Shown piece after piece: positions 33,612-59,834 of a stretch of 64,000 nt of DNA (positions are counted from its first letter, which is position 1; each line of letters starts with the position of its first letter). This stretch comes from Pseudomonadota bacterium (lineage in GTDB: Bacteria > Bdellovibrionota > FAC87 > UBA2466): assembly GCA_043718025.1 (NCBI GenBank), contig JAYSWN010000068.1, positions 74,771 through 138,770 on the forward strand, read 5' to 3'. The notes beneath the pieces are model-generated. The model made no database searches. It was given only the letters and a program-made list of their open reading frames with translations, and had not been told where the DNA came from. The position numbers and the translations under genes were made by a program.

Positions 33612-34559
33612 GTGAAAAATACAGTCATCATTTGGGGCGGCGCAATACTTTGCCTTTTTCCGTTTGTGACTTCAGCCACGGCTTTGGTAGCTGGTCTATT
33701 TTTAAGCCTCGGCCTCAACATCGTAGCTAATTCCGATCAGAAAAAAGCGGCGAAACTGGCGATGCAGCTTTCGATCGTTTTTTTAGGGTTCGGTATGGAT
33801 CCGTCGGCCGTGGTGCGAGCCGGAACCCACGGTATTTTATTTACCGCGGGTTCCATTGCTTTCACTTTATTTGCCGGCTGGTGGCTGGCGCGTTGGTATG
33901 GCGTACCCAAACGCTTGGGCACATTGCTTGCGATGGGTACCGCCATCTGCGGGGCTAGCGCAATCGCCGCCGTCACGCCGATAATCAAAGCGGAACACGA
34001 AGAGGTTGCGGTAGCCCTAGCCGTAGTTTTTCTTTTGAACTCTACGGCACTTCTCTTTTTTCCGGAGATGGGCCACGCCTTGGGAATGACGGCAGTGAGT
34101 TTTGGCACCTTCGCCGGCATCGCGATTCACGACACGAGTTCGGTGGTGGGAGCCGCGGCCCGTTTTTCAGAGGCCAGCCTTTCTGTCGCCACAACCGTAA
34201 AGCTTACCCGGGCGCTGTGGATATTGCCCATCACTTTAGTTCTGGGGGCGCTGTCTACTCATGATGCGACTCAAAAATTTTCGTGGAAGAAAGCAATTAA
34301 GGCGGGGTTACCCTGGTTTATTCCCGCATTTTTGATCGCGGTGGCCATTCGTGCGGTATGGACGGGCGGCATGACGGTGTTCTTGGTGCTCTCGCGAATT
34401 GGTAAGGCAGGATTAAACGCAGGAATTTTTCTAATCGGCGTGCAAATGAGTAGGGCGGCCCTAACCAAGGCCGGCGCTCGCCCGTTAATGATGGGCGTAA
34501 CGCTTTGGGCCGTTGTTATCGTGATGACGTTGATTTTGGTGCTGAACGGCGTTTTTTGA
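33612..34559 (+). CDS. YeiH/PSE-family putative sulfate exporter
   Basis: GTAICGASAIAA, AIHDTSSVVGA and VKLTRALW motifs; about 10 TM segments. Confidence 0.9.
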   Translation: MKNTVIIWGGAILCLFPFVTSATALVAGLFLSLGLNIVANSDQKKAAKLAMQLSIVFLGFGMDPSAVVRAGTHGILFTAGSIAFTLFAGWWLARWYGVPKRLGTLLAMGTAICGASAIAAVTPIIKAEHEEVAVALAVVFLLNSTALLFFPEMGHALGMTAVSFGTFAGIAIHDTSSVVGAAARFSEASLSVATTVKLTRALWILPITLVLGALSTHDATQKFSWKKAIKAGLPWFIPAFLIAVAIRAVWTGGMTVFLVLSRIGKAGLNAGIFLIGVQMSRAALTKAGARPLMMGVTLWAVVIVMTLILVLNGVF

Positions 34560-34632: not shown

Positions 34633-35298
34633 TCACTTGGTTCCAAACTGGTAGGCAACCTGGGAATCGTCGGAGAAGATCGGATTGCGAACGAAAAAGG
34701 CCGCCTGCACGGTAAATGGACGACGGGCGATCTTAGATTCCGCCTGGCTCGACAAGGCACCGACGATATGAAAACGAACAAAACAATTCTCGGTCGTGGG
34801 ATTGACGGCATGTTGCTCGCTGATGCGCCGGGGTAACAGTGGACACGTTTCGCTGTCCATTTTTGTGTCGCCGCAGAACGTAACTGTCTTGATATGACGA
34901 TAGCTCGCGCCGGAAGACCAAGTTCCCAGCTCTTCATCCGTTAACGTTTCATAGAATACGGTATGGCTCACGGTATCTAAACGAAAGCGAACCTCCGTCG
35001 TGTCGCCCGTGGGTGGCCGTTTAAAGTCGACGGAGCATTGAAGCGTTGTTTCATTCGCTTCACGGCAGCCGCTCGGACTTACGCCCGGGACCACACTGGC
35101 GGCCCGGCCAATTTTGAGAATGTGGTCGGTGAGCGCGGTAACACTCTCTTCCATGGCCGACCGATCCGAAAATAGGAACGATAAGAAAGTCTGGTTGCCA
35201 CCCACCCTGAGAAATAGGGTCGTGGCGAGCGAAAGGAGGACCATTACGATGAGTGTTTCAAGCAATGTGAACCCTTTATCGGAATAGATTTGACGCAT
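34633..35298 (-). CDS. Prepilin-type N-terminal methylation protein (PilW/PulJ-like minor pilin)
   Basis: Class III signal KG|FTLLETLIVMVLL; four Cys in the globular domain. Confidence 0.8.
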   Translation of the reverse strand: MRQIYSDKGFTLLETLIVMVLLSLATTLFLRVGGNQTFLSFLFSDRSAMEESVTALTDHILKIGRAASVVPGVSPSGCREANETTLQCSVDFKRPPTGDTTEVRFRLDTVSHTVFYETLTDEELGTWSSGASYRHIKTVTFCGDTKMDSETCPLLPRRISEQHAVNPTTENCFVRFHIVGALSSQAESKIARRPFTVQAAFFVRNPIFSDDSQVAYQFGTK

Positions 35299-35299
35299 T

Positions 35300-35893
35300 T
35301 TATTTCTCCAAAATTAGCAGCGAGAGTTGAACTTCTTTTTCTTCGAATCCACCACTGCGTGCCGCCACCCAATTAGCCACCACCGAAACCAGTAGAGTTT
35401 GATTTGGGCTTAGCGGGAATTCCGCTGGGGTTTTGCCGCAAGCTTTGGAATTTACTTCTCGCGTGATGCGATCGATCACCTCGACTCGGTAATAGCGATT
35501 AAGCGTCTGCATGGTGCCAACATTTTCTGGCCCCCCTTCATTCGCCGCAGAGCCGGCTAAGGGGTCGGGCAGGGCGACGACCCCCGTTGCCCGATCAAGC
35601 CGATTAATATCGGCACAAAAAGCGTAAGGAAGGCTCGTTGGATCGACGGGGTTTTTGCCGAGGTACGCAAGGAGCGTGTTGTTTTTCATTGAACGAAAGA
35701 ATTCGGCAAGCTCGGTTGCACTCGATTGAGCAATCACTCGCTGCTGCACTCGTGCCATCGTCTTGCGCGATGAGACCTCTCCCACCAACATGATGAAGAG
35801 GGCCAGCGAGATGATTAGCAGGGACATCACAAACGATAAAAGAGTGAAGCCACTTTTACCCCGGAGGTAAGAGTGCGGTTTAAAGTCTCTCAT
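35300..35893 (-). CDS. Minor pilin-like protein (PilV-like position), lacking Glu5
   Basis: KSG|FTLLSFVMSLLII followed by a hydrophobic helix; Cys pair; C-terminal VSVVANW strand. Confidence 0.7.
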   Translation of the reverse strand: MRDFKPHSYLRGKSGFTLLSFVMSLLIISLALFIMLVGEVSSRKTMARVQQRVIAQSSATELAEFFRSMKNNTLLAYLGKNPVDPTSLPYAFCADINRLDRATGVVALPDPLAGSAANEGGPENVGTMQTLNRYYRVEVIDRITREVNSKACGKTPAEFPLSPNQTLLVSVVANWVAARSGGFEEKEVQLSLLILEK

Positions 35894-35895
35894 GT

Positions 35896-38040
35896 TTATT
35901 CCTTTCCCACGGGTTGAAATTCAGTCTCTTCAGGATACGGTTCGCCCGGAGGGTAGCTCATGGTTTTACCTCTTCCGAGCATTCCGTTGCTGTTGTAGCC
36001 TTTGCAATACGCTCGTTCCGTAGTCTCAAGGCAACTAATGCGAAACAAGCTCGAAAGAACGCGTGTGATTTTAGGGTGGTGGGGCAGGTTTGGCCTTTCC
36101 CACAAAACCGGCTTTTGTATGAACGCGGGAGTGGCGCCGTAAGTTCGTCCCCAATAGAAGAGTTTTCCCGATTTTTCTTCGGCGACGATTTGGCCGTCAA
36201 AGGTTCCCAACAATTTTGTAGTGCCAGAGTAGTTAGCCACCCCTTCGGTCTCCACGGCACGCGGAGTGTAATCCCACGGAATGTGGTAGCTCGTCGGGGA
36301 ATTGAAAGAGAGGTAATCTGGGGGAACGTGGCCCGGGGGACGGGTAACGACGGGGCCACGCCCGAGCAATCCGCTATAACCCGTATGCCCCCAACTCGAT
36401 AGTTTACCGTTACGGTGAACTGCGAATACCACATTGTTGATACAGGAGAGGTTGAGATCGTTTTCCGTTTCGCCGGGTCCCAGCAAAGACGCCAAGTTGA
36501 GCTTATGAGGCGGCGTTGTGGAGTTTGATCCGATTCGGACCGTGTGAGGATGCACCAGAATATCTCGCGATGAATTCTCTCCCGTGGTGTACCAACTGCC
36601 GCCGCTGGTCTGCAGGTAAATGGCGTTTCCGCAGGCATTCATTTGGCTCCATTTTTCATTGTTTGCGGGAACTTGGAAGTGCGTGCCGTCGTTGGCGTCA
36701 TTTCCGCAAAATGACCAGGTTAAGCGAACGGGGTCATAGGAAATTCCGGAGCCCAAACTTGCTAACGAGTTTTCCTTTAAGAGATAAACACCCCAGCCGC
36801 TGTTTATCCGGCCCCAACAGTAGATCTCCCCTTCAGAAGTAAGACCGCAGGTCTGTTGGTCGAGTACTGCGACGTCCGAAAAGGCGGGGACTGGCTTGCC
36901 CTCCGGAAGACGCATGGGAAGAGGCTTCTTGGAACAGATTTCTTCTTTCAAACAAATGTCTGGAGCCTTTCCCCCTTGTCCGAGCAGACCATAATCTGAG
37001 GAGGAGGCCTCGTTCTCTCTCTCGTTAACTTGATCGAGCCCCCAGCAGTAGAGTTTCTTATCTTTGGAAAGGCCACAGAACCGATGTGCCCCGCCAGTAA
37101 TTTTAGTGAAAGTCTTCTCGCCGGACATTGCGGAGGTGTCCACGGGTAGTGGAAAAGACGCACAGAGTACCGGATGTGTTTTTGGTGCCGGCCAAGCAAG
37201 GTCCTCTTCCGTCGTGCACGGTTCGAGCCCTTTCGTACTTTCTCCAATTCCAAGACTGCCTCTCATGTGCTCTCCCCAGCAATAGGCCTTTCCCGCTCGG
37301 TCGAGGCCGCAAACGGCCTCCCCATTGGTGGCTAGTGATACGATGGGAATGTCTCGTCTGCCGGCAGGCGTGGGAGTTGGTGAAGGACTTGGACTCGGTT
37401 GTGGATCCGGATCCGGACTTGGACTGGGTGACGGATCGGGGCTCGGCGATGGATCCGGATTCGGCGTTGGCGTGGGACTTGGCAAAGCATCCGGACTCGG
37501 CGTTGGAATGGGGCTCGGTGTGGGGGACGGAGTAAGTGGGGTCTTTAAGGCGAGGCAAGTTTGAATCATAGTACCATTCATTTTTTTTCGACCGCAAAGA
37601 CTGGCTCCGCTAAGAAGAAAATGGGTAGGATTTTTGGGATCGACGGGGGGTAACTTTACGGAGAAATCTCCCCCCGAAAACCGTTTCATCGCGCTTGAGT
37701 AAATTGGTTTTGTCGGCGTCTCATTTTCCTTAGGTTCGGCGACGCCATTCTCGATGAAGTCGACGCGGCGAATGCAATCCCCGGCGCTGGCATCAATGAC
37801 TTCAGCTTTTACGGCATAATATTGATTCAACGCCACCACTTCTGCATCGAGCACAGCCTGCTGGGAGTTCAGCCGTGTCGTCTGGCGCCGAACGTGAACT
37901 GAACTCAGCACTTGAATCGCGGTTACCCAACTCATGCTCAGGGTCAATAACAGGACGGCCGTAGCGACGAATACATCGCCCTTGCTGTTTTTTAGTCCTC
38001 GACGAAGTTGAATCTTAAAAAAATGTGAGTGCAGAGGCAA
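35896..38040 (-). CDS. PilX-like pilin N-terminus fused through a Pro-rich linker to an RCC1-like beta-propeller (putative pilus-tip adhesin)
   Basis: [15 protein letters not shown]; repeated CG(L)...G..YCWG and G.LG.G RCC1/BLIP-II motifs; TTG start with AGGAG RBS. Confidence 0.75.
37367..37540 (-). repeat. Coding low-complexity (PT/PS/PD)n linker
   Basis: Encodes [56 protein letters not shown]. Boundaries approximate. Confidence 0.85.
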
Positions 38041-38113
38041 TGTCGCTCCTAAAGTGGATTTAATGAATCTGGCTTAGGTGTACCTTTAGACTACGCAAAG
38101 GCCGGTTTCTGCT

Positions 38114-38134
38114 CCACCTACGAATTTGGTGCGA
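38114..38134. promoter_or_regulatory. 21-bp motif, copy 1 (upstream of the pilin/RCC1 operon)
   Basis: CCACCTACGAATTTGGTGCGA; a minus-strand TAGTCT -10 box (38088-38093) lies exactly 20 nt away. Confidence 0.75.
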
Positions 38135-38184
38135 TGGGTTGCAACTTGCGTGGAAAATGAGTGGTGGTGAACGTCGTAAATGAC

Positions 38185-38230
38185 GAAGGTCTCCCTTCTC
38201 GTTAGGTGGGTAACGAAAAGGGAGACCTTC
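38185..38230. terminator. 20-bp stem hairpin between the EF-hand gene and the pilin operon promoter
   Basis: GAAGGTCTCCCTTCTCGTTA / TAACGAAAAGGGAGACCTTC with one mismatch (G-U on the minus strand). The U-tail is weak. Confidence 0.55.
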
Positions 38231-38299
38231 TTTCTGCGAGATTACTAGGGGGAATATAGCTAGAGGGTAACACTTTCGGAAGGGGGGGCTTGCGGAGTT

Positions 38300-38905
38300 T
38301 TAACGATAGACATTGGCTGCCGCCGTGATTTCATCATTGTCTAGCCACTGGTCTTGATTGAGATCGACCCAACCATGACGTGCGTAGCATTCCATCTTTG
38401 GTTTCGTGGAATTGAGCAGGTACTCCGCGACCAAAAATGAAGCGCTGCGCAGTGCTGTCTTCTCCGTCGTCGAAAGAGCACCATCTTTATTGGTATCAGC
38501 CTTTGAAAAATAGACCAGCTCGGCAACCAGACAGTTGTGAATTGAACTTCGGTCGGAGAGATCTGTAAATGCATACGTCTCGATTGACCGACGGTTTACG
38601 AGACCGAGCAAGGACTTCACGATTTCACTATCGAAAGCACTGATGACTCCGTCGCGGTTCAGGTCAAACATTTGATTTTGCGTCGTGATTCGAGCCCCCA
38701 AGTTATTCATGATTCCTCCGTAGGCCTCATGGTATTCTCGAGGGGTAAAAACGCCGTCCCCATTTGTGTCTAATAAGCGCGAAAACATCTGATGTAGTTT
38801 AAAGCTGGTACGTCCATTCAATTGGTTCACGCATTCCGCGTGGGCTCGCGTTGAATTGATGACGAGGGCCAGCAATAGTAGCGGTAGGCCGAGGGTAATT
38901 TTCAT
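38300..38905 (-). CDS. Secreted EF-hand (calcium-binding) protein
   Basis: ATG 38905 with AGGAG RBS; signal peptide ending AHA; four loops DTNGDG, DLNRDG, DTNKDG, DLNQDQ. Confidence 0.8.
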   Translation of the reverse strand: MKITLGLPLLLLALVINSTRAHAECVNQLNGRTSFKLHQMFSRLLDTNGDGVFTPREYHEAYGGIMNNLGARITTQNQMFDLNRDGVISAFDSEIVKSLLGLVNRRSIETYAFTDLSDRSSIHNCLVAELVYFSKADTNKDGALSTTEKTALRSASFLVAEYLLNSTKPKMECYARHGWVDLNQDQWLDNDEITAAANVYR

Positions 38906-38970
38906 GTCTTTCACTCCTGTTATGGTTGGGGGGCTGATGTACTTAGAATACGGAGAATGCGGTGAGTGGC

Positions 38971-38991
38971 CCACGTACGAATTTGGTGCGA
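38971..38991. promoter_or_regulatory. 21-bp motif, copy 2 (upstream of the EF-hand gene)
   Basis: CCACGTACGAATTTGGTGCGA; a minus-strand TATTCT -10 box (38945-38950) lies exactly 20 nt away. Confidence 0.75.
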
Positions 38992-39087
38992 AGTCTTGGG
39001 CAGAGAAACAGTATCCCTTCCGAAATTCATTTCCAGAAAGTACCCATTAGCTTGCTTATCATTTTTGGAAACAGAATGGGTGAGAGG

Positions 39088-40014
39088 TTAAAAACCAACT
39101 GCTTCGAGAGTGTTGCGCTCGCCACTACGGGAGGCGCTAGAGTCGCCAGTGCTGCCGGTGACGCCTCGGAATGCGCCCGCGCCTGAATCCACGGGGGGGC
39201 CGCCCGCCAACTCAGAGAAATGGTACATCCAGTTACCGACACCATCCAAGCCGTTATAAATGAAACCGCCGAATCGATAACTTACCGATCTTCCGCCACC
39301 CGTCTTAATAACATCCTCCGAATGAATCTCGATGTAATCACTTCCGGTCGGGGACATGGAGCCGGCAGAAATGATTGCGCCGCCCGAATATTTAACCTGG
39401 CCATTGGCATTTAGTTTTGCCGTCACAATGATGGCATCGCGTTTCTCAATATGAGTAAGCCCATCTTCATGGTTTGTGGGCTCAGCAGCAACCGCCGCGG
39501 CCTCAACAATATATTCTTGATCTGGCTCAGGAGGACTCGAACCAATAGCTGCGGTGCGAGCGGCACTGTTTTTTCGCTCACTTAGTGGTTTCCAGACAAT
39601 TGGAATCAAGGGGAAGGGATTTTCATCGTACTCGGTCAAGTAGACGGTTTTCGCCCCGATGGAGAACGGTTCGGGAGGACGAGAAAGGCGAATTGCTTTC
39701 TGTCCTGCAGTGTCACCGCCAGCGGGGTCTTGGGCCACCACGTAGCCATTTTTTGTTACAAACAAAAATCTTAGCGCCCGTCCCGTTGCGTAGTTCCCCC
39801 TGCCATCTTCGATCGTGGTCATCGGGGAATTCGGGTGCAAGGACCAAGCAATGGCCACGGCTCCAGAAATGCCAGTGGTAGTTCCGGCACCGGTGGTGAC
39901 ACCGCCTCCCTGGGGGCGGGCACATTGCCCAATGCCTACGGTGGAAAGGCCGATGAGAAGGTAGCCTAACCATCTCCAAGCCTTAAATGGTTTTGTCGGC
40001 AATGGGCGCATCAA
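39088..40014 (-). CDS. Hypothetical exported protein, probable lipoprotein
   Basis: Basic N-terminus, hydrophobic stretch, GIGQC lipobox-like site, Gly/Thr linker. Start is 40014 (TTG) or 40011 (ATG); GAGG RBS. Confidence 0.65.
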   Translation of the reverse strand: MMRPLPTKPFKAWRWLGYLLIGLSTVGIGQCARPQGGGVTTGAGTTTGISGAVAIAWSLHPNSPMTTIEDGRGNYATGRALRFLFVTKNGYVVAQDPAGGDTAGQKAIRLSRPPEPFSIGAKTVYLTEYDENPFPLIPIVWKPLSERKNSAARTAAIGSSPPEPDQEYIVEAAAVAAEPTNHEDGLTHIEKRDAIIVTAKLNANGQVKYSGGAIISAGSMSPTGSDYIEIHSEDVIKTGGGRSVSYRFGGFIYNGLDGVGNWMYHFSELAGGPPVDSGAGAFRGVTGSTGDSSASRSGERNTLEAVGF

Positions 40015-40089
40015 CCAATTACCTCGTTGGGGGGAATAATGAATAGAGGCTCCCTTATTGTAGGTGTTTCTGAGATTGGGTGAAATTGC

Positions 40090-40104
40090 GCAATTTCGAT
40101 GCCA
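40090..40104 (-). promoter_or_regulatory. Sigma54 (-24/-12) promoter of the lipoprotein gene
   Basis: TGGCATCGAAATTGC on the minus strand: GG-N10-GC with TGGCA and TTGC, about 75 nt upstream of the start. Confidence 0.7.
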
Positions 40105-40158
40105 GACGGATATCTTAATTGGGCTGAGAAAGATGAGGGTTTAAGCAAATTGTGTTGG

Positions 40159-40179
40159 GCACGTACTAATTTGGTGCAA
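40159..40179. promoter_or_regulatory. 21-bp motif, copy 3 (in the regulator's own promoter)
   Basis: GCACGTACTAATTTGGTGCAA, 18/21 identical to copy 2, covering the -35 position of a plus-strand TATAAT at 40190-40195. Confidence 0.65.
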
Positions 40180-40212
40180 CAAGTTTGATTATAATTACGG
40201 AGGGGAGAACGA

Positions 40213-41718
40213 ATGGGCTCGACGACAAAACCTTCTCTAAAGACACAGCTTTTGGAAGAAATTGATGTCGCTATTCGGGAAGGGCGAAAAGACGATGCGC
40301 GCAAATTACTGCGCGCAAATTTTTCGGAGCGGTCAAAAATACCAAGACCATCGCTCTCCCGAATCGCCAATCTGCTTCGCCGCTCCGACATGCCAATGTC
40401 AGCCATCTTTGCGTTGAATCCTGTCGTACGGCCGAGTTCCCGTTCCCCATCTCAAGCCACCGACGGCGAGAGGCTCGAATACGCAGCTTCGCTCATTAAC
40501 ATTGGGGCGCCGGAGGAGGCGTCAGGGATATTAAGCAGCGTGGACGCTTCTAAAAACCCCGATACTTGGCTATTTCGCGCCTTTGCGTCAGTGGCCAAAT
40601 GGGATTATGCGGGTAGCATCGGTGAGTTGAAAGCCTATCTCTCGGTAGCTACGCTTGCTCCTTACGCCCAGTTAGTCGGCAGAGCCAACCTCGTGGCCGC
40701 GTTGATTGCGGAAGACAAGAACGTCGAGGCCGATGAAGTGTTAATTCCGCTTTTGGCAGCCACGAGAGAACAAAAGCACGAGTTGCTTCACTCTTCCGCC
40801 ATGGAGCTTGCCGCGCGTAACGAATTTAGCCGACAACGATGGGACGCTTTCGACGCGAGATTGGCCGAGATGACCTTGCGGCAATCTTCCTTAGATTCAT
40901 TTCAACGGTTCATCATCAAAAAGTGGTCAGTTTTGAAAGGCGTTATTCAAAGCAAGGGCGAGCCCGAAGCACTACTCGCCTTGCAGGAGTTAAGGCAAGA
41001 AGCGGAGACAAGGGGGCACTGGGAAACCGTAAGGGACTGCGATCGCTATTTTGCTACTACACAAAAAAACTTTCCACTTTTTACACATCTCTTTTTTGGC
41101 ACCGAATCTGCGATCTATAGATCAAAGCTGCATACCGCATGGACCGGACATCCTAAATTACCGAGCCACTACGAGTGGCATTTGCTTGTGAAAAAGAGTT
41201 CACCGGTTCTACGGCTTGAGACCGGAGAATGGGCCGGCAAAAGTCACTGCATTAAAATTGGGCAGTTGACCCAGCGAACCTTTCAGGCCTTTTGCAGTGA
41301 CTTCTATCGGCCGCTTCGATTGGCAAGTTTGCACTTTCGCCTCTATCCGAAAGAATATTTCAACCCCCACTCTTCGCCCGATCGCGTGCACCGGGCGATT
41401 CGATTGTTTCGAGAATGGTGTCGGAGTCATAGAGCCCCTTTTCTCATCCAAGAAGCAAATCACAACTATTCATTAGGCACCGCAAAACCCGTTGCCATTG
41501 AGGTGGCGTCTCCAGATTTGGTTCGGGACAATGTGGGAGCAAAACTCTTGTTGCTGCAAAAAAAAATGGGGGCAGAACAGTTTACGATCGAAGAGGCTAC
41601 GGCGACGCTAAAAATTTCTCGCAGTGCTTTGCACCGTCTGTTTCGGGAAGCGATGGCAAAGGGCTCTATTCAACGGCAAGGAAATGGCGCGGCAACGGTG
41701 TATAAAATTGCGGCCTAA
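40213..41718 (+). CDS. Putative transcriptional regulator: helical TPR-like N-terminus plus two winged-HTH-like segments
   Basis: OmpR-like segment RLYPKEYFNPHSSPDRVHRAIRLFREW; C-terminal wHTH FTIEEATATLKISRSALHRLFREAMAKGSIQRQGNGAATVY; GGAGG RBS. Confidence 0.7.
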   Translation: MGSTTKPSLKTQLLEEIDVAIREGRKDDARKLLRANFSERSKIPRPSLSRIANLLRRSDMPMSAIFALNPVVRPSSRSPSQATDGERLEYAASLINIGAPEEASGILSSVDASKNPDTWLFRAFASVAKWDYAGSIGELKAYLSVATLAPYAQLVGRANLVAALIAEDKNVEADEVLIPLLAATREQKHELLHSSAMELAARNEFSRQRWDAFDARLAEMTLRQSSLDSFQRFIIKKWSVLKGVIQSKGEPEALLALQELRQEAETRGHWETVRDCDRYFATTQKNFPLFTHLFFGTESAIYRSKLHTAWTGHPKLPSHYEWHLLVKKSSPVLRLETGEWAGKSHCIKIGQLTQRTFQAFCSDFYRPLRLASLHFRLYPKEYFNPHSSPDRVHRAIRLFREWCRSHRAPFLIQEANHNYSLGTAKPVAIEVASPDLVRDNVGAKLLLLQKKMGAEQFTIEEATATLKISRSALHRLFREAMAKGSIQRQGNGAATVYKIAA

Positions 41719-41787
41719 TTATGCACGTCCTGCGGTGGCCGGACAAAAAACTGTATCTATGCGTTCGATTTAAGTGGAGCAGAAACG

Positions 41788-41823
41788 AAAAGAGCCTCTA
41801 CCGTAACGGAAGAGGCTCTTTTT
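41788..41823. terminator. Bidirectional intrinsic terminator
   Basis: AAAAGAGCCTCT...AGAGGCTCTTTTT between convergent genes. Confidence 0.85.
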
Positions 41824-41848: not shown

Positions 41849-42178
41849 CTACCAGCGGCCGCGCGTTCTGATAACCGTTCTGCTGTGATAAGAGTGGGTC
41901 GGTACTGTGTAGTACGTCTGATAAACAGGGTACGTGTATAGAATCGGCGTCGGTTGGTAATACACAATCGGAGCCGGTTGATAGTAATAGATAGGAGCTA
42001 CTGGAACGTAGTAGCCGCCGCCGTATCCGCCCCCGTAACCACCGCCACCATTTCCTGAATTGATATTGATGGTTCCACTGTTGTTGTTAAAGCTGTTGTT
42101 GTATTCCTGCGCGAAACTCGGAGAGCTCACGAGAAAACCGACCATAAAGAAACAAGCAAACATAATATTTTTGATCAT
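41849..42178 (-). CDS. Small secreted Asn/Gly/Tyr/Pro-rich protein
   Basis: Signal peptide ending SFA; (GGGY)n then PxxY repeats; RBS present. Confidence 0.75.
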   Translation of the reverse strand: MIKNIMFACFFMVGFLVSSPSFAQEYNNSFNNNSGTININSGNGGGGYGGGYGGGYYVPVAPIYYYQPAPIVYYQPTPILYTYPVYQTYYTVPTHSYHSRTVIRTRGRW

Positions 42179-58467: not shown

Positions 58468-59082
58468 CTACTCTTCCTGCTTTCCGCACCTGCGAAATCT
58501 GAGGCGGTAGTGCTGTTTAAGTCGACCATCGGTGGAGTCGACCGTGAGTAATGCGCGACTTTTCCCCCCGCTTCGCACAATAATTGCGGTATCGATGGTG
58601 AGGGGTAACGGCTTTTTGCAGTTCTGCCAGGGGTGGTCTTCTTTTCCCACTGAGTTGCGCACCATGTAGTCATTGACGAACGGCCCGGTGAATTCGCTCT
58701 TTAATACCGGCCCGCGGTCTTTGAAGTAGAGGTTGCTTCTTTGTTCACCCACCGCGCCTTTTTCGATATTTGCGAAACCTCTAAAATCGACTTGTGCCAC
58801 TGTGTAGGACCAACCGGGCGGTATTCGCAGGTCGGCAATAATGCGGCACTCTTTCTTTGCTCGTTTTACTTCGACGTTCGGACCGGCTTCCACCGTGTAT
58901 TGGTCGAACAGTAGAGTGAAGGTGTTTTCGTCGTCAGAGATAATGTCGACTACCGATCCTAATGGGCAGCCGCTGCCAGCGTAAGAAATTTTATTCAACC
59001 TCACCTCCCCCGGCTTGGGCCGGTCCGCTTGTGCAGACAGACCCAAGAACAGGGTTAGCTGGAGCATCCTTATTACCGACAT
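58468..59082 (-). CDS. Secreted DUF4360 family protein (copy 2)
   Basis: YAGSGCPLGS, FTLLFDQY, C...L..P.GWS and DFRGFA motifs. Start set at ATG 59082 (59067 is an alternative). Confidence 0.85.
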   Translation of the reverse strand: MSVIRMLQLTLFLGLSAQADRPKPGEVRLNKISYAGSGCPLGSVVDIISDDENTFTLLFDQYTVEAGPNVEVKRAKKECRIIADLRIPPGWSYTVAQVDFRGFANIEKGAVGEQRSNLYFKDRGPVLKSEFTGPFVNDYMVRNSVGKEDHPWQNCKKPLPLTIDTAIIVRSGGKSRALLTVDSTDGRLKQHYRLRFRRCGKQEE

Positions 59083-59750
59083 CGTTGCCATTGCAGTCCG
59101 TATTGATGAGTGAGTTGCCCATCCACCGAGTCGAGGGTCATCAGCGCCTGCTGGCGGCCCGAAGTAATTACTCTGACTTGGGTGTTTAAGTTTAGGGCCC
59201 GGTTTACTCCGCACGGCGACCAGACGGTGGCGGCTAAGCCCAAGCTGTCGCGAATGCGGTAGTCATTGGTGTAGGGCCCGCGAAAATTCGACTGCATCGA
59301 GGCCGTCTTTGGTTGGCCGGCGAAGTAGTACGACGTTTTTTGCGTTCCCACCGCCCCAAAATCAACGTTGGCGTAGCCACGGTAATCGACCTGAAAGATC
59401 GTAAACGACCAACCTTGGGGGAACTTCATGTCGACGGCGATCTGGCAGTTTTTTCTTCCCGCGCTTAAAGGAATTCCCGGGCCGCCTTCGGCCACGTAAG
59501 AATCAAAGAGCAGGGTGAATGCCTTTGCGTCGTCGGACAGGACATTGGCCACCGTGCCCGCCGGGCAACCGGTGCCGGCGTAGCTGATTGATTTGATATG
59601 AACCTCCCTTGGATCGGGACTACTGGCTAATGAACTTTCTGCAGACATCTCGCTGAGATCGGGAAACAGTTCGAAGCTATGTGCGCTTGAAACGGCGGGC
59701 GCGAAGGCTATCGCGGCGCCACCAAGCCAGGTGAGTGCCCTTTTTTTCAT
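59073..59750 (-). CDS. Secreted DUF4360 family protein (copy 1)
   Basis: YAGTGCPAGT, RKNCQI, DYRGYA, WSPCG and LQWQRC motifs; ATG 59750 with AGGGG RBS. Confidence 0.9.
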   Translation of the reverse strand: MKKRALTWLGGAAIAFAPAVSSAHSFELFPDLSEMSAESSLASSPDPREVHIKSISYAGTGCPAGTVANVLSDDAKAFTLLFDSYVAEGGPGIPLSAGRKNCQIAVDMKFPQGWSFTIFQVDYRGYANVDFGAVGTQKTSYYFAGQPKTASMQSNFRGPYTNDYRIRDSLGLAATVWSPCGVNRALNLNTQVRVITSGRQQALMTLDSVDGQLTHQYGLQWQRCR

Positions 59751-59834
59751 GGAATCCCCTTTGAATTTTGGTTTTTTTTGCGACGACAAAAGCGGGAGCG
59801 ACTTCCGAAGAGAACGGGGTCAACTAGAGGCGAA

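Follow-up and report, generated by a model that had tools for sequence, protein, structure and literature searches.

Positions 34633-41718 of the window examined here, a 64,000-nucleotide stretch of contig JAYSWN010000068.1 from a bacterium of the Bdellovibrionota, encode a 501-residue protein with a tetratricopeptide repeat (TPR) superhelix and two predicted winged helices. Beside its gene stand three leftward units: a lipoprotein gene, a gene for an exported EF-hand-like protein and an operon of three pilin-like genes, one of which carries an RCC1-like β-propeller. From an 18-bp motif that recurs in the spacers of this block, we consider it on balance probable that these parts make up a small regulon, in which one regulator with four motif sites activates two or three units and probably also controls its own gene. 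The 501-residue protein would be a one-component transcription factor that binds the motif and turns on three promoters of the sigma-70 type, in front of the pilin operon, of the EF-hand gene and of the gene for a small lipoprotein encoded on another contig (C17), and it would likely damp its own promoter through the third copy of the motif.

The motif, CACSTACKAATTTGGTGC, lies at 38115, 38972 and 40160, one copy in each of the three spacers; read toward the genes it is GCACCAAWTTMGTASGTG. Three copies in the window compare with an expectation of 0.10, none of 100 shuffles reached three, and no further match was found in the window at up to three mismatches. A sequence-only reading that preceded this analysis had described a 21-bp motif in each spacer that was not seen elsewhere in the window; its place and rarity hold, but the core is 18 bp long and the flanks differ. 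The core contains an imperfect 17-bp dyad, with 10, 12 and 10 of 17 positions symmetric in the three copies. Scanning the source genome (4.14 Mb; 3,607 open reading frames, ORFs) gave three exact matches, four at up to two mismatches and eight at three. The fourth copy (G000:C17:5789, G000 being the source genome) has one mismatch and lies 33 nt upstream of, and in the same orientation as, the gene for a 98-residue lipoprotein, and it takes away the claim that the regulon is fully self-contained. Across 37 further genomes of the order, only two isolated matches to the pattern came up, each with one mismatch. A genome-wide global site was rejected on the four copies at up to two mismatches in 4.14 Mb; the motif is rare, where a widespread one bound by a global regulator would have spoken against a regulon.

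The copies also share a promoter geometry. Exactly 21 nt past the motif, a TAnnnT box is found in copy 1 (TAGTCT), copy 2 (TATTCT) and the C17 copy (TAAAAT). When a 17-nt spacer is assumed, the −35 hexamer reads TGGAGC or TGGGCC and the last two bases of the motif fall inside it. The motif thus sits near −45, abutting or overlapping a weak −35, which by analogy would be the place of an activator site; activators of the PhoB and SARP type bind at a rigid distance upstream of the −10 and act by polymerase contact. The two winged helices would read the imperfect dyad across the weak −35 and recruit RNA polymerase. Copies 1 and 2 are alike at 73% over 56 nt. In a simple promoter scan, sigma-70 sites were not in excess and the boxes linked to the motif went undetected, and a sigma-54 reading of the motif itself was rejected because TTGC is lacking at −12. 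At the C17 locus (L001:5459-5806), TAAAAT ends only 6 nt before the ATG of the Cys-rich 98-residue lipoprotein, which suggests a leaderless message.

Copy 3 differs from the others: on the − strand, CCTCAT stands at the 21-nt position instead of TAnnnT. Because it lacks a −10 at the common distance, overlaps the promoter of the regulator and faces a lipoprotein gene with a sigma-54-type promoter of its own, copy 3 more probably serves autoregulation than the control of a third target. For the same reasons, its own promoter and the geometry of copy 3, the lipoprotein reads better as the usual partner of the regulator family, whose position it holds, than as the third regulated target it was first taken to be. 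The sigma-54 consensus is TGGCAC-N5-TTGC. A perfect 10-bp palindrome, ATTGCGCAAT, lies at 40085-40094 and overlaps the −12 part of this sigma-54-type promoter.

The AlphaFold2 model of the regulator (22-row alignment) has a predicted local distance difference test score (pLDDT) of 90 and a predicted template modelling score of 0.85. TPR helices begin at residue 9 and the helical repeats run to about residue 310, after which two domains show the helix and strand order of winged helices (residues 350-500), and the regulator had indeed been described as TPR-like with a double winged helix-turn-helix from its sequence. In a wide fold search that covered the TPR part, this part matches LGN, Rap, NprR, MalT domain III and PlcR at Z 15-17. 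A Foldseek search of the regulator against the PDB returned nothing at E 0.001 or better. The last domain has weak matches to MarR_2, CooA and DeoR; one of the 22 family members matches PF00486 (Trans_reg_C; E 0.018), with which the winged-helix topology of the model is in keeping. No Pfam or NCBIfam model passes its cut-off, and by these matches no receiver, BTAD or ATPase domain is found in the regulator, its first 310 residues being TPR. Near-invariant residues, N159 among them, occur in the TPR part.

The regulator is one of seven paralogs in the source genome and has homologs in 22 of 40 relatives, all inside the order. At E 1e-30 or better the family counts 2,104 clusters; by its Atlas clusters and the majority of record titles it belongs mainly to Bdellovibrionota. 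Source annotations call the homologs hypothetical or TPR proteins. Literature searches, mostly outside subscription papers and with supplements excluded, found nothing relevant on the family, in agreement with the earlier statement that no description of such a system was known. Small FHA-like genes, recognised by eye from their motif, recurrently adjoin the homologs (L005, L036, L058, L063 and L129). At L031:6744-9414 (G010:C346) a homolog adjoins two other pilin-like genes and an fn3-repeat lipoprotein, a second and unrelated pairing of the family with pilin-like cargo.

Loci of the homologs were examined in three sets, and a locus scan for them worked with a 6-row alignment. The first set comprises 61 loci from the source genome and its relatives in the order, with 74 flanking spacers, and the window was left out of the de novo motif search. 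That search returned aaTCcngCCAAAnt with a likelihood of 86, against 45-50 in three shuffles, and by its matrix copies 1 and 2 of the window reach 12 bits. Sites of at least 10 bits are strongly biased in strand (19 vs 3 of the 74 spacers, in-sample). Measured from RCCAWW, the spacing to the −10 peaks at the offset seen in the window (7/95, vs 1/70 reversed and 3/438 beside other genes; p ~1e-4). A second set of 57 new loci, out of 71 fetched, is mostly from Bdellovibrionales at 24-36% identity, and two of its loci (L151 and L152) have the core on both flanks. In the two sets together, a 14-of-18 match on both flanks of the regulator, pointing away from it, occurs at 16 of 105 loci, compared with 33 of 662 other genes (p 3e-4) and 21 of 619 cross-locus pairs. 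Four variants were each written from their two copies, and none has a third copy at two mismatches in its own genome; two paralogs of one genome (G016) have different variants. A matrix built from seven sites of relatives ranks copies 1 and 2 first and second in the source genome, the C17 copy fifth and, in sixth place, a site upstream of the tagged lipoprotein gene that adjoins a different paralog. Each paralog would then read its own motif variant, and small regulons would be kept apart.

The genes next to the regulators suggest an input. Lipoproteins make up 60 of 211 regulator-adjacent genes and 80 of 846 others, and a tag of the G[ND][GA]xx[YF]xG type near the N-terminus is found in 46 of 211 vs 13 of 846, and in 20 of all 3,607 ORFs of the source genome. 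Three lipoproteins of that genome have a GNG-[ED] tag, and each adjoins a paralog. Tagged neighbours are 161-989 residues long and lie in any orientation (18 divergent, 16 and 5 co-oriented, 7 convergent), and the codons of the tag vary at third positions; the constraint on the tag therefore acts on the peptide, and a reading of it at the DNA level was rejected on the variation of synonymous codons. Among relatives in the order, window included, sigma-54-type sites precede 12 of 43 regulator-adjacent lipoprotein or tagged genes, compared with 23 of 456 others and 0 of 43 when reversed; in the distant set they precede only 2 of 32. At L039:6498-13682 (G026:C1), regulator and lipoprotein genes form tandem pairs; every lipoprotein gene there is preceded by a sigma-54-type promoter and encodes a peptide resembling the tag.

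The TPR domain would be the sensor and, by analogy with the RRNPP receptors, we infer that it reads a peptide of its neighbour. This is the least certain step: the input would be a Gly-rich peptide from the N-terminus of the exported protein encoded next door (tag GNGxxYxG), reaching the cytoplasm as a precursor before export or after cleavage and import. At the window the candidate sources are the sigma-54-driven lipoprotein and a convergent 109-residue Gly/Tyr-rich protein beyond the bounds first given to the block. The latter is a candidate second partner of the regulator; its tag score of 22.8 ranks 2nd of 3,607, but on low-complexity sequence. A similar small exported Gly/Tyr-rich neighbour stands beside another paralog (L003:428-871, G000:C40). 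The wider proposal, a signalling system of Bdellovibrionota in which TPR/double-winged-helix factors sense a neighbour's GNGxxYxG-type peptide and switch sets of surface proteins via paralog-private operators near −45, is a tentative one, which we judge more apt to fail than to hold. A complex prediction for the L028 regulator (34 rows) with a 36-residue tag segment (33 rows) scored 0.01 with controls not folded, and counts neither way.

Several results weigh against this picture. The middle domain of the regulator compares with OmpR-type domains at an hhalign probability of 0.6%. The site pattern used to train the relatives' matrix was written from the geometry of the window, and the pattern alone matches 46 sites in the source genome; the seven sites that support the spacing come from five loci of related genomes, some of them spotted by eye before counting. 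The 21-nt spacing was not repeated in the second set (2/64 vs 8/379), nor in a third set of 23 new loci out of 36 from metagenomes, where spacing gave 1/17 and the core 4/33 vs 6/33 reversed. A best pair of spacer 18-mers with at least 16 matches occurs at just 8 of 62 homolog loci, window included. The six other paralogs of the source genome could also be readers of the motif. As to the input, the window lipoprotein is without the canonical GNGxxYxG tag (score −1.5, rank 822/3607), the pattern for the tag was drawn up with the sequences already in view and gave 4/25 vs 3/70 when held out (p 0.075), and an exported peptide would have to reach a TPR domain in the cytoplasm. The search for paralogous regulator and motif pairs in relatives, proposed beforehand as a check, thus found private variants in part of the family, but the spacing was not repeated in two held-out sets. 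Private operators are thus a good reading of the window locus and of a small share of the close homologs, and a proposal for the family at large.

The same protein and site could work with the opposite sign, a repressor covering the −35 of its targets and being released once the TPR domain binds a signal. The two motif bases inside the −35 hexamer, the overlap of copy 3 with a promoter and the weak resemblance of the last winged helix to the repressor DeoR fit such an arrangement. The hexamers themselves are poor (TGGAGC and TGGGCC; the sites of relatives are likewise unlike TTGACA), so that the bare promoters would be weak, and a distance to the −10 that stays constant between loci is better suited to touching polymerase than to blocking it; we regard repression as unlikely. 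Comparably small is the chance we give to a reader encoded elsewhere, either another paralog or an enhancer-binding protein of the NtrC/Fis type, with the neighbouring gene incidental or only a target. A fourth copy on a contig without a paralog, seven paralogs in one genome, the position of copy 3 56-73 nt upstream of the sigma-54-type promoter and the resemblance of TGCACCAAATTAGTACG to an NtrC site (TGCACCA-N3-TGGTGCA) would be accounted for, but three of the four copies lie within 2.1 kb of the regulator gene, the sigma-54 pattern is absent from the spacers of copies 1 and 2, and core variants flank homologous regulators elsewhere and are private to them.

Strict strand bias (the 19 vs 3 of 74 spacers, in-sample) and fixed spacing are also properties of promoter elements, and the motif with TAnnnT might be the promoter of an alternative sigma factor while the TPR/winged-helix protein acts on something else. 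This seems very improbable to us: the conserved block is a dyad centred near −45, upstream of the contact of sigma region 4, it differs between paralogs as a single sigma consensus does not, and copy 3 is without a matching −10. That the copies are remnants of a local promoter duplication with no present regulatory meaning is scarcely credible. The likeness of copies 1 and 2 over 56 nt is what would be expected, but the identity is concentrated in the dyad and the −10, both of which the C17 copy keeps on another contig, and unrelated loci keep the same core and spacing.

An activator encoded at the locus, as we favour, invites comparison with known systems. RRNPP proteins (Rap, Rgg, NprR, PlcR, PrgX and AimR) have a similar TPR superhelix (Rap 8rte Z 17.3, NprR Z 16.1, PlcR Z 15.1), although these scores tie with those of other TPR proteins and are not specific. 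They also form paralogous families in which an adjacent gene encodes an exported protein with a short conserved peptide and each paralog has private operators, as proposed here. The DNA-binding domain of RRNPP regulators, where there is one, is an N-terminal Xre helix-turn-helix (HTH); a small secreted propeptide is encoded next to them, and its mature form binds the TPR groove after re-import. The regulator instead has two predicted C-terminal winged helices and no N-terminal Xre HTH, its host is a diderm, and the tag is found in any orientation within the mature portion of (lipo)proteins that are large and unrelated, rather than in a small propeptide, although the 109-residue exported neighbour at the window has a similar Gly/Tyr stretch. 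With winged-helix activators of the OmpR/PhoB and SARP (AfsR) type and with MalT-type TPR sensors it has in common a site at fixed distance to the −10 with a poor −35 (three of four copies) and a predicted winged helix attached to a TPR-like sensor (MalT domain III, Z 15.6); its Atlas neighbours include TPR plus Trans_reg_C at 0.89. It differs from them in that no receiver, BTAD or ATPase domain was found, in the order TPR-winged helix-winged helix and in an imperfect dyad in place of direct repeats. The regulator would work like a TPR-sensor winged-helix activator and is outside RRNPP and OmpR/SARP on domain plan.

The family, with more than 2,000 clusters, has no name or model in Pfam or NCBIfam, and with a candidate operator and a promoter layout in place it is open to direct tests despite an uncultured host. 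If each paralog runs a small private set of surface proteins, Bdellovibrionota would switch adhesins, pilus tips included, module by module. If the tag of the neighbour is indeed the TPR input, transcription control by RRNPP-style peptide receptors would extend to diderm bacteria: an RRNPP-like peptide circuit would operate in a Gram-negative predator lineage, and this locus would give its first operator, promoter geometry and pilus-tip-swapping regulon.

The output of the regulon would be an alternative tip trimer of the I/J/K or V/W/X type that displays the RCC1 propeller, on pilus or pseudopilus machinery encoded elsewhere. The model of the 221-residue pilin matches EpsJ (Z 8.7, root-mean-square deviation 4.7, 129 aligned), XcpW (Z 8.7, 3.1, 118), TTHA1219 (Z 8.5, 3.7, 133) and GspJ (Z 8.0); the first non-pilin row is at Z 5.4, and folds of type II secretion and type IV pili tie. 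Its gene also passes PF07963 and TIGR02532 for the prepilin signal, and the other two products have a Gly followed by a hydrophobic stretch without Glu5, under the cut-offs. Homologs of the 197-residue protein occur in 14 of the 37 other genomes from the order (one weak), up to four per genome and usually beside the other two trio genes in varying order. The 714-residue protein matches RCC1_2 over cut-off and WD40_RLD at 1e-23. In its N-terminal part it resembles members of the trios of G026 and G017, whose C-terminal domains differ, and residues 1-160 had no homolog in our search, from which absence is not implied. Eight homologs of the large subunit were scanned at the C-terminal end and gave one RCC1, two DUF5122, one Golvesin_C, one DUF4214 (weak) and three with no known domain. 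Neither a regulator homolog nor the window motif was found at any of 18 trio loci examined. Because of these 18 loci and the differing distal domains, we read the trio as a tip module that stands by itself within the order and exchanges its distal domain, and that is under the window regulator only locally. The earlier proposal of a pilus-tip module thus stands as to the GspJ/PilW-type fold and the swapping of tip domains among homologous trios, and the trio may serve either type IV pili or a type II secretion pseudopilus. A reading of the 7-kb block as a conserved cassette was rejected, since all 18 of the other trio loci are without the regulator and no homolog of the lipoprotein or of the EF-hand protein turned up in the searches run.

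The trio resembles PilV-W-X/PilY1 of type IVa pili and GspI-J-K of type II secretion in its three co-transcribed pilin-like genes and its GspJ/PilW-type fold, and differs from these tip complexes in the propeller fused to a K/X-type subunit via a Pro-rich linker and in having no PilY1, FimU or assembly genes in the trio unit. The Kil/Tad tips of Myxococcus likewise come as several alternative sets per lineage with variable distal domains (PMC12075869, PMC8833165), and these alternative tips are like the trio and its swappable distal domain. Other prepilin genes of the source genome lie on contigs C41, C82, C234 and C19. Searches, mostly outside subscription papers, found nothing relevant on RCC1 minor pilins in Bdellovibrio. 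The EF-hand gene is predicted to be a transcription unit of its own, and among 719 candidates its product retrieved only itself, which does not imply absence; that it has a calcium role for the pilus tip is a conjecture, as is the part in prey recognition suggested beforehand for the block.

Table 1. Features of the block and its right-hand neighbour, in window coordinates
Position	Strand	Feature	Basis
34633..35298	−	Minor (pseudo)pilin, GspJ/PilW-type fold, 221 aa	PF07963 and TIGR02532 over cut-off; model pLDDT 69
35300..35893	−	Pilin-like, likely GspI/PilV-type by place in trio, 197 aa; G/FTLLS start without Glu5	Sequence; weak ComGC match
35896..38040	−	Likely GspK/PilX-type N-terminus, Pro-rich linker and RCC1-like β-propeller, 714 aa; predicted tip adhesin	Profiles
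38088..38093	−	Predicted −10 box TAGTCT, 21 nt past copy 1	Sequence
38115..38132	−	Motif copy 1, likely activator site of pilin operon	Motif scan; rank 1 in source genome by relatives' matrix
38185..38230	−	20-bp hairpin, terminator-like, 3' of EF-hand gene	−36.9 kcal/mol, z −8.1
38300..38905	−	Exported EF-hand-like protein, 201 aa; three DxNxDG loops (46, 81, 137)	EF-hand and dockerin models over cut-off
38945..38950	−	Predicted −10 box TATTCT, 21 nt past copy 2	Sequence
38972..38989	−	Motif copy 2, likely activator site of EF-hand gene	Motif scan; rank 2 in source genome
39088..40011/40014	−	Predicted lipoprotein, 307 aa; Gly-rich tether after Cys	Lipobox
40088..40104	−	Sigma-54-type promoter CTGGCATCGAAATTGCG of lipoprotein	Pattern scan, consensus
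40160..40177	.	Motif copy 3, on predicted −35 region of the regulator's own promoter	Motif scan; ends 12 nt before TATAAT
40190..40195	+	Predicted −10 box TATAAT of regulator gene	Sequence
40213..41718	+	Regulator, 501 aa; TPR superhelix ~1-310, predicted winged helices ~350-425 and ~440-500	AlphaFold2, fold search, profiles
41787..41823	both	Bidirectional terminator-like hairpin	Folding z −5.3 and −4.4
41849..42178	−	Exported Gly/Tyr-rich protein, 109 aa; SGNGGGGYGG; convergent with regulator, outside earlier bounds	ORF; tag score

The six ORFs of the block were recovered by an ORF check at the positions and strands first given (Table 1), and its bounds proved sound: a convergent gene on the left ends at 34559 and the terminator-like hairpin closes the block on the right. 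The other hairpin divides the EF-hand unit from the pilin unit. A composition anomaly was rejected, the GC content being 0.48-0.55 as in the rest of the window. Contigs of two sequencing runs, possibly the source of the sequence, cover the stretch evenly and without variant letters. The window lipoprotein had no homolog in the 40 relatives and no usable Atlas match, from which absence is not implied.

Elsewhere in the source genome, G000:C31:4799-8674 holds two tandem units in which a gene for a protein of about 275 residues is followed by one whose exported product is tagged near its N-terminus by a Gly-rich stretch (GGGTDFGG; GGNEKGGAG). The ~275-residue proteins look like members of the HTH plus DUF4423/TIGR02147 family, and may represent another family of regulators that pairs with exported proteins bearing tags. 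At G000:C182:8410-8700 a 96-residue exported protein with three GDVG(G/S)NGQ repeats does not adjoin a regulator paralog, and at 58468-59789 on the − strand of the window lies a tandem pair of similar exported proteins.

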